From the IMG/VR virus record IMGVR_UViG_3300037524_002067, positions 64,001 through 128,000 of that record: a stretch of DNA of 64,000 nucleotides. One strand, written 5' to 3'. A model generated the notes under the pieces. It was not told the DNA's origin and made no database searches. It was given only the letters and a program-made list of their open reading frames with translations. The stretch comes from a virus. This document shows positions 11,845 through 12,005 of the stretch, one piece after another; positions within the stretch are counted from its first letter, which is position 1; every line of letters begins with the position of its first letter. The translations under genes and the position numbers were made by a program.

Positions 11845-11921
11845 TGATCGCCACGGGAGTCGAACCCGTATGTGTCCAATTACTCTTTCAACTGCTTAGA
11901 AGGCAGAGGAGTTATGCGACC
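11845..11921 (-). tRNA. Non-canonical D-armless tRNA-Arg(TCT)
   Basis: GGTCGC/GCGATC acceptor, 7-nt connector in place of the D arm, CTGC-CT TCT AA-GCAG, long variable region, ACGGG-TTCGACT-CCCGT. Confidence 0.65.
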
Positions 11922-11928
11922 TTTTTTG

Positions 11929-12005
11929 TGACCACCACGGGATTCGAACCCATATGCATCCACTTACTCTTTCAACGGTTTAGGAAACCGAGGAGATATG
12001 CGGCC
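11929..12005 (-). tRNA. Non-canonical D-armless tRNA-Arg(CCT)
   Basis: Paralogue of 11845-11921 with covarying anticodon stem CGGT-TT CCT AA-ACCG. Confidence 0.65.

Follow-up and report, generated by a model that had tools for sequence, protein, structure and literature searches.

Two probable arginine tRNA genes with a re-threaded D arm belong to a conserved phage gene family

Two tRNA-like genes in tandem

The 64,000-nucleotide (nt) stretch of DNA analysed here (the window) covers positions 64,001 to 128,000 of the IMG/VR phage record IMGVR_UViG_3300037524_002067 (154,343 bp, 32.5% G+C, CheckV completeness 59%). The minus strand carries nearly all genes of this phage, and its terminase shares only 27% identity with those of Ackermannviridae-type phages, so it has no close cultured relative. 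A tRNA array on the minus strand (window 10.6-12.9 kb) contains two 77-nt tRNA-like genes, units A and B, which lie in tandem 7 nt apart and share an unusual, rewired layout. Their parts are listed below in window coordinates; the covariance model R1 is described in the next section.

12005-11929, minus: unit A, putative rewired tRNA-Arg(CCU), 77 nt, layout as unit B (sequence, model R1)
11998-11992, minus: unit A connector UAUCUCC
11984-11982, minus: unit A anticodon
11929, minus: unit A discriminator A
11921-11845, minus: unit B, putative rewired tRNA-Arg(UCU), 77 nt (sequence, RNAfold, model R1)
11921-11915, minus: unit B acceptor 5' strand
11914-11908, minus: unit B connector UAACUCC, with the 5' strand of a short helix at 11912-11909
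11907-11891, minus: unit B anticodon arm, anticodon at 11900-11898
11890-11886, minus: unit B linker UGAAA
11885-11882, minus: unit B 3' strand of the short helix, GAGU
11881-11870, minus: unit B D-loop-like segment and CAU
11869-11853, minus: unit B T arm
11852-11846, minus: unit B acceptor 3' strand
11845, minus: unit B discriminator A

Each unit has a seven-position acceptor stem consisting of six pairs and an A7.G66 mismatch, with G2.U71 in both, and a 5-bp T arm with the loop UUCGA(C/A)U. The anticodon stem has five positions, U27.U43 plus four pairs, and closes a 7-nt loop (CUUCUAA or UUCCUAA). There is no D hairpin (10-13 with 22-25) between the acceptor and anticodon stems, which are joined by a connector of just 7 nt (UAUCUCC in A, UAACUCC in B). 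Both units have a 21-nt segment, UGAAAGAGUAA(U/G)UGGA(CA/UG)CAU, after the anticodon arm, and both end in a discriminator A with no encoded CCA. The connector CUC pairs with a GAG just 5' of the D-loop motif. RNAfold, run on unit B alone, returned the proposed fold with ACUC/GAGU around the anticodon stem, at a z-score of -1.4 that is not significant by itself.

The two units are 80.5% identical. Six of their 15 differences make up three compensatory double changes, one at pair 3:70 and two in the anticodon stem. A first-pass annotation, made from the letters alone, had described two units with a 6-bp acceptor, an A7.G66 mismatch, a 7-nt connector, a shared variable region and covarying anticodon arms (UCU, CCU). 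All of this was confirmed, base for base, on the minus strand. The Arg identity bases (A after GG, C35, U36 and A73) are present in both units. ARAGORN called neither unit, and neither reached the Rfam gathering threshold for RF00005 (29 bits); the sole weak match in a permissive Rfam scan was that of B to tRNA-Sec (23.8 bits).

A phage gene family with a covarying short helix

Units A and B belong to a conserved gene family in which the short helix covaries, a 15:48-type pair covaries, and the base at position 20 is linked to isotype. An 18-letter motif from the shared segment (scan 1) retrieved, among chance matches, six viral contigs with the same architecture. Looser patterns (scans 2-3) raised the total to 58 distinct sequences, which formed alignment A1 and from which the covariance model R1 was built; unit B is the first row of A1 and of the balanced alignment A2. 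Because these first patterns fixed CUC and GAG, scan 4 was made blind to the CUC/GAG helix and specified the D-loop-like motif and T arm only, giving at least 119 loci. The 94 distinct sequences with a 7-nt connector among the matches listed in scan 4 are referred to as the blind sample, and all counts out of 94 below are among those listed matches. Taken together, the pattern scans of viral contigs found more than 150 distinct sequences with the rewired layout.

R1 scored unit B at 87.5 bits and unit A at 80.8 bits, compared with less than 30 bits for every canonical tRNA of the same genome, a match well outside what chance would give. Over the 87 loci from the first three scans, members scored at least 77 bits and canonical tRNAs at most 33 bits, with divergent variants in between. 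A covariance model and a phage search had been proposed in the first-pass annotation; the family homologues found here conserve the architecture.

The short helix enclosing the anticodon arm was well supported in the blind sample. Its first pair was CG in 50 sequences, GC in 25 and AU in 19, and its second was CG in 66, UA in 15, GC in 8 and AU in 5, with no mismatch at either position; the third was a standard pair in 70 and C.A in 24. Altogether 258 of 282 cells were paired, versus 162 ± 6 when the 3' strands were shuffled (0/2000 shuffles reached 258). At least 16 complementary versions of the helix occur, including CCC/GGG, ACC/GGU, GCC/GGC, CGC/GCG, CAC/GUG, CUG/CAG and AGA/UCU. Two-sided changes were present at all three pairs in A2, and the signal collapsed when the partner strand was slid by one column. 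Conservation of the helix extended to divergent variants, including that of Vibrio phage 424E50-1, in which linker length varies. The long stems behaved as expected of tRNA stems: 97% of acceptor, 81% of anticodon and 98% of T-arm cells were paired in A1, with many double changes, and A2 agreed.

Three other arrangements were tried and rejected. Pairing of the connector UCC with GGA of the D-loop motif fails in Ile/Met members, which have U or C in place of the A, and reading the 4-bp hairpin as the D arm with the anticodon elsewhere leaves the remaining 22 nt stemless. A permuted or split gene was rejected since both acceptor strands lie at the gene ends. Restoring cloverleaf order by processing would need an internal transposition, and we know of no RNA processing that does so.

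The relocated motif has the signature of a D loop. U8, the A after the helix (equivalent to A14), the GG and the T loop UUCRA were invariant in A1. The second motif base and the base before the T stem were AU in 47 sequences, GC in 7 and GG in 4, with no other combination, and this covariation has the pattern of the R15:Y48 Levitt pair. Length varied at the 16/17 position, as in ordinary D loops. The base after GG was A in 22/22 members with an Arg anticodon and in 0/36 Ile or Met members, which had U or C there, usually followed by U; the discriminator was A in every Ile or Met member. The bacterial Arg identity set comprises A20 (the main ArgRS, or arginyl-tRNA synthetase, determinant), C35, U/G36 and A/G73, and the bacterial Ile set includes A73, U20 and U21 (Giege and Eriani 2023, PMC9976931). 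The A after GG in Arg members matches A20, the features of the Ile members likewise agree with the published set, and the AAYUGG segment behaves like a D loop. The earlier view of AAKUGGA as D-loop-like gained support from the invariant GG, the 15:48-type covariation and the A20-like base tied to Arg anticodons. The proposed CUC/GAG pairing likewise held up, covarying in the helix-blind sample in its 16 or more versions, and every structural proposal made under the heading of a rewired tRNA fold survived tests on relatives.

The family is not confined to one isotype. Its Arg anticodons are UCU, CCU, ACG and UCG, and the same scaffold also carries GAU, UAU and CAU (Ile, Met/Ile2); A1 itself contains UCU, CCU and ACG along with GAU, UAU and CAU (Met or Ile2 for the last). 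Ile and Met/Ile2 versions were at least as common as Arg versions. The assignment to tRNA-Arg in the first-pass annotation fits units A and B, which have the Arg identity bases, but the scaffold is not specific to Arg. Within the blind sample, 93/94 members had an Arg anticodon and 58/94 encoded CCA right after the discriminator, and ARAGORN called only 4/94, with the wrong borders. Three or more tRNAs were found in 66 of these loci. A separate canonical tRNA of the same anticodon occurred in 1/94, and the rewired gene is thus normally the sole local carrier of its anticodon.

Members were also located in known phages. The crAss-like Kehishuvirus 'tikkala' has a rewired GAU member (at about OQ198717.1 95577-95653) in an unannotated 90-nt gap of a 23-tRNA array, which has no second GAU tRNA and, apart from this member, a single Ile tRNA, UAU. 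A CCU member that is either unannotated or lies under a spurious coding sequence (CDS) is present in Streptomyces phage Yaboi (at about NC_048730.1 91004-91080) and in relatives of that phage. Felix O1 carries an unannotated UCU member at NC_005282.1 25951-26029, which scored 54.8 bits, compared with at most 28 bits for its annotated tRNAs. The Arg-type pattern, run over one genome each of 185,579 prokaryote species, matched 10 places, six true and four due to chance. All six true members were on contigs of metagenome-assembled genomes, several of them dense tRNA arrays, and this pattern found no family member in the isolate chromosomes of the set. Judging from these searches, the rewired class is widespread and essentially phage-only. 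Full-text literature searches, which included the motif letters, found no paper describing the layout.

Exact copies of unit B were found on wastewater contigs, at 100% identity in two RNA-labelled runs (Logan contigs), and a copy with 3 differences was found in a wastewater metatranscriptome contig. These contigs match only in the tRNA genes and their flanks have diverged, so they speak to conservation rather than transcription. Exact copies amid differing flanks point to purifying selection.

Several divergent forms were seen at the margins of the family. Locus L124 (1987-2070) corresponds to Vibrio phage 424E50-1 (OX241437.1, about 129800-129883) and carries a divergent rewired Arg(UCU) gene in which the helix is CCC/GGG, the linker measures 12 nt and the 5' connector is lengthened. 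This connector could alternatively form a mini D hairpin (GGG/CCC), and the variant may be an intermediate form; it lies under a 39-aa 'hypothetical protein' CDS on the opposite strand. Loci L098 (for example 936-1025), L101, L069 (for example 4368-4457) and L070 hold 80-90-nt rewired variants with the anticodons UAU, UCU and ACG. Their helices (CGU/ACG, CGA/UCG, CAG/UUG) and an additional hairpin after the D-loop motif indicate that the layout has several sub-architectures.

The surrounding tRNA array

Two neighbours bear directly on the interpretation of units A and B.

12090-12162, minus: canonical cloverleaf tRNA-Arg(UCU) (ARAGORN; Rfam RF00005, 69.3 bits)
11154-11747, minus: HNH endonuclease gene, 197 aa (phrog_10822, E 2.5e-19, and four further HNH PHROGs)

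With the canonical tRNA-Arg(UCU), the array also holds an ordinary counterpart of unit B, and the D loop of this cloverleaf, AAUGGAUA, is similar to the relocated motif. No other CCU-anticodon tRNA besides unit A was called in the 154-kb record. Of the Arg codons in the open reading frames (ORFs) of the phage, 68% are AGA and 13% AGG (together 81%). The HNH gene, on the strand of the two units, begins 97 nt downstream of unit B; Pfam gave nothing for this ORF at E 0.001, with HNH_3 as a sub-threshold match only.

The rest of the array, and the tRNA complement of the phage as a whole, contained further unusual genes. Long variable arms in bacteria are normally restricted to Leu, Ser and Tyr tRNAs. 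Here, many tRNAs occur twice for one anticodon, once as a normal gene of 73-76 nt and once as a gene of 85-89 nt whose variable arm is a hairpin; such pairs cover Lys, Ala, Asp, Thr, Asn, Cys, Ile and Trp (for example genome 26044-26130, 52135-52221, 53275-53363, 26491-26576, 28199-28286, 21209-21296 and 25488-25572; window 10684-10769). These long-variable-arm twins look like a systematic second tRNA set. The twin at 10684-10769, a tRNA-Trp(CCA), is abutted and slightly overlapped by a gene for a short class I Trp/Tyr-type synthetase (9945-10763, minus; 272 aa, PF00579, E 1.4e-38). Two tRNA-Sec-like 8/4 tRNAs with the Ser anticodons GCU and UGA were present at 12520-12609 and 12693-12774 (minus); their scores with the Rfam tRNA-Sec model were 44.4 and 24 bits, and they fit the class of 8/4 tRNA-Ser (PMC5389517). 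Two tRNA-like elements (12012-12088 and 12238-12322, minus) have good acceptor and T arms and no convincing anticodon arm; in the former, the acceptor helix is extended to 11 pairs and the T stem has 4 bp. In a related wastewater phage, 82 other letters replace window 11924-12086. A tRNA-like RNA of about 224 nt (10848-11071, minus), with acceptor, D and T arms around an insert of about 150 nt, may represent a tRNA interrupted by an intron or insert. Lastly, a tRNA with the anticodon CUA, of the amber suppressor type, was found at 17480-17552 (minus; 61 bits on the Rfam tRNA model), and TAG is the stop in 11/138 long ORFs under the standard code.

Proposed wiring, competing explanations and known tRNAs

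We consider it probable that both genes encode working arginine tRNAs, reading AGA (UCU) and AGG (CCU), and that they belong to a phage class with a re-threaded D arm. In canonical numbering, the proposed order would run from the acceptor strand (1-7), U8 and A9 to the 22-25 strand (N-C-U-C) and C26, and then through the anticodon arm (27-43) and the 5-nt linker UGAAA to the 10-13 strand (G-A-G-U). The D-loop equivalent would come next (A14, R15, Y16, U17, G18, G19, A20 and the following bases), and C, A, Y48, the T arm and the acceptor 3' strand would complete the molecule. The connector 22-25 strand would thereby lead directly into the anticodon stem and the 10-13 strand directly into the D loop, the strand polarity of the re-threaded D stem remaining canonical. 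D stem and anticodon arm would form a single continuous stacked hairpin at a three-way junction, and the joints 9-10, 21-22 and 43-variable loop-49 would be exchanged for 9-22, 43-linker-10 and 21-CA-48. In solved tRNAs the D-stem groove holds base 9, and bases 21 and 48 occupy adjacent core layers, so the new joints should be short. The D-loop strand could still touch the T loop through G18/G19 at the elbow and form the core contacts U8-A14 and R15-Y48, in which case the L shape would be kept and would be usable by RNase P, ArgRS (through A20, C35, U36 and A73), EF-Tu and the ribosome.

Several points weigh against this reading. We infer the L-shaped fold from canonical tRNA geometry, and expression, maturation with host CCA addition, arginylation and decoding are likewise projected from the sequence. 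The copies in the window carry A7.G66, G2.U71, U27.U43 and, in A only, U13.U22, and do not encode CCA. The third helix pair is C.A in 24/94 relatives, and RNAalifold on A2 recovered the three long stems without predicting the 3-bp helix, the evidence for which is therefore comparative (covariation counts). Neither ArgRS (PF00750) nor a CCA-adding enzyme (PF01743) was found in the 154-kb record, which is 59% complete, so host enzymes would need to accept the fold. Finally, unit B has the anticodon of the intact canonical tRNA-Arg(UCU) about 170 nt away, and at least B is therefore not needed simply to fill a slot.

This redundancy lends itself to another explanation, one that we regard as unlikely. 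The units could fold as described and yet not be adaptors, serving instead as tRNA mimics, either decoys or sponges for tRNA-targeting nucleases or sensors, or regulators; their tRNA-like features would then be retained for recognition by nucleases or sensors. Along with the duplication of the canonical tRNA-Arg(UCU) by unit B, the many structurally aberrant twins of normal tRNAs in this phage are in keeping with such a role, and tRNA-cleaving defences and the phage tRNAs that counter them are well documented (PMC10264068, PMC11464382, PMC12445682, PMC13096335). However, a decoy would need no A20, discriminator, encoded CCA, U33 or purine 37, all of which are tied to anticodon class, and the absence of a nearby canonical tRNA with the anticodon in question from 93/94 relatives is more in line with a working replacement.

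The proximity of the HNH gene raises a further alternative, which we rate as improbable and which is compatible with a working tRNA. Here the unit would be mainly cargo, or an immune allele, of HNH homing cassettes, in which canonical tRNA genes are targets of the nuclease and the rewired copy is spared, and its conservation would reflect homing and not an advantage of the fold. The gene 97 nt from unit B has a parallel in Felix O1, where an HNH CDS overlaps the 3' end of the rewired member. HNH-like ORFs lay within 300 nt of 50/213 rewired genes versus 232/1870 canonical tRNAs of the same loci (odds ratio 2.2, p 3e-5), although this comparison is biased, as loci were centred on the rewired gene, many were near-duplicates and iterated phmmer had supplied the HNH set. 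Around three quarters of members nevertheless have no nearby HNH-like ORF, and homing leaves the RNA-level covariation and the isotype-specific identity bases unexplained.

Decay of ordinary tRNA-Arg genes into pseudogenes that lost the D arm would account for the A7.G66 and U27.U43 mismatches in both units, the silence of gene finders and the two degenerate-looking tRNA-like elements that adjoin them, but is barely credible given more than 150 distinct relatives in unrelated phages with the same layout, compensatory changes in every helix and invariant tertiary-contact bases, the 100% conservation of unit B on contigs with diverged flanks, and differences in the acceptor, anticodon and T stems that exclude one recent mobile sequence.

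The reading of units A and B as working arginine tRNAs can be taken further, though doubtfully. They would then be elongator tRNAs representing a topological isomer of the cloverleaf, and the first natural non-cloverleaf tRNAs in bacterial translation. Phages would keep them as a parallel supply, here beside the aberrant twins, that is out of reach of tRNA-cleaving defences of the host, or of the attack that the phage itself makes on host tRNAs, because the D-arm/variable-loop surface read by such nucleases has been re-threaded. As to the reason for the layout, we can offer a guess of low confidence, namely that it evades nucleases directed at tRNAs or travels with homing-endonuclease cassettes.

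Much is shared with canonical class I tRNA-Arg (RF00005): a 7-bp acceptor, a 5-bp T stem with the loop UUCRA, a 7-nt anticodon loop with U33 and A37, the anticodons, the A/G73 discriminator, G18 G19, A20, U8/A14 and 15:48-type covariation. In contrast to the canonical form, the rewired units have no D hairpin between 9 and 26. The 22-25 strand precedes the anticodon arm, the 10-13 strand and D loop come after it, the ordinary variable loop is absent, the junction is three-way and not four-way, and the units fall below the RF00005 gathering score.

In D-armless mitochondrial tRNAs, both the D stem and the elbow contacts of G18G19 are gone, and these tRNAs rely on adapted mitochondrial EF-Tu and synthetases. 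The rewired units resemble those of animals (mt-tRNA-Ser(AGY), nematode/Romanomermis; PMC4394434, PMC12221289) in having no D hairpin between the acceptor and anticodon stems and in being missed by standard finders. Unlike them, the rewired family keeps and relocates every D-arm element, with an invariant GG and a covarying D-stem equivalent, and its hosts are bacteria with standard machinery. The first-pass term 'D-armless' is a misnomer, in that all D-arm parts are present and re-threaded.

Viral tRNA-like structures and the tRNA-like domain of tmRNA also attain an L shape with non-cloverleaf connectivity, within larger RNAs that have no decoding anticodon arm and are not stand-alone elongators; the rewired units differ in being separate genes with an anticodon arm. 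Mukai et al. 2017 (PMC5389517) described 8/4 and 9/3 cloverleaf tRNAs in phage clusters, and not the rewired form. Those tRNAs and the allo-tRNAs are likewise non-standard, found in phage tRNA clusters and recovered by metagenome mining, but they are cloverleaves with normal arm order and different stem lengths, whereas the rewired family has 7/5 stems and an altered strand order. On these comparisons, the rewired layout is a new structural variant of tRNA.

A large natural family that retains the tertiary contacts of tRNA under a changed strand order would mean that RNase P, synthetases, EF-Tu and the ribosome accept solutions other than the cloverleaf. Phage tRNA inventories would be corrected by it, as Felix O1, crAss-like and Streptomyces phages have unannotated members, some under spurious CDSs. 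Such genes would also provide ready-made orthogonal scaffolds for genetic-code engineering, and a connection, open to experiment, with the arms race in which immunity targets tRNAs.
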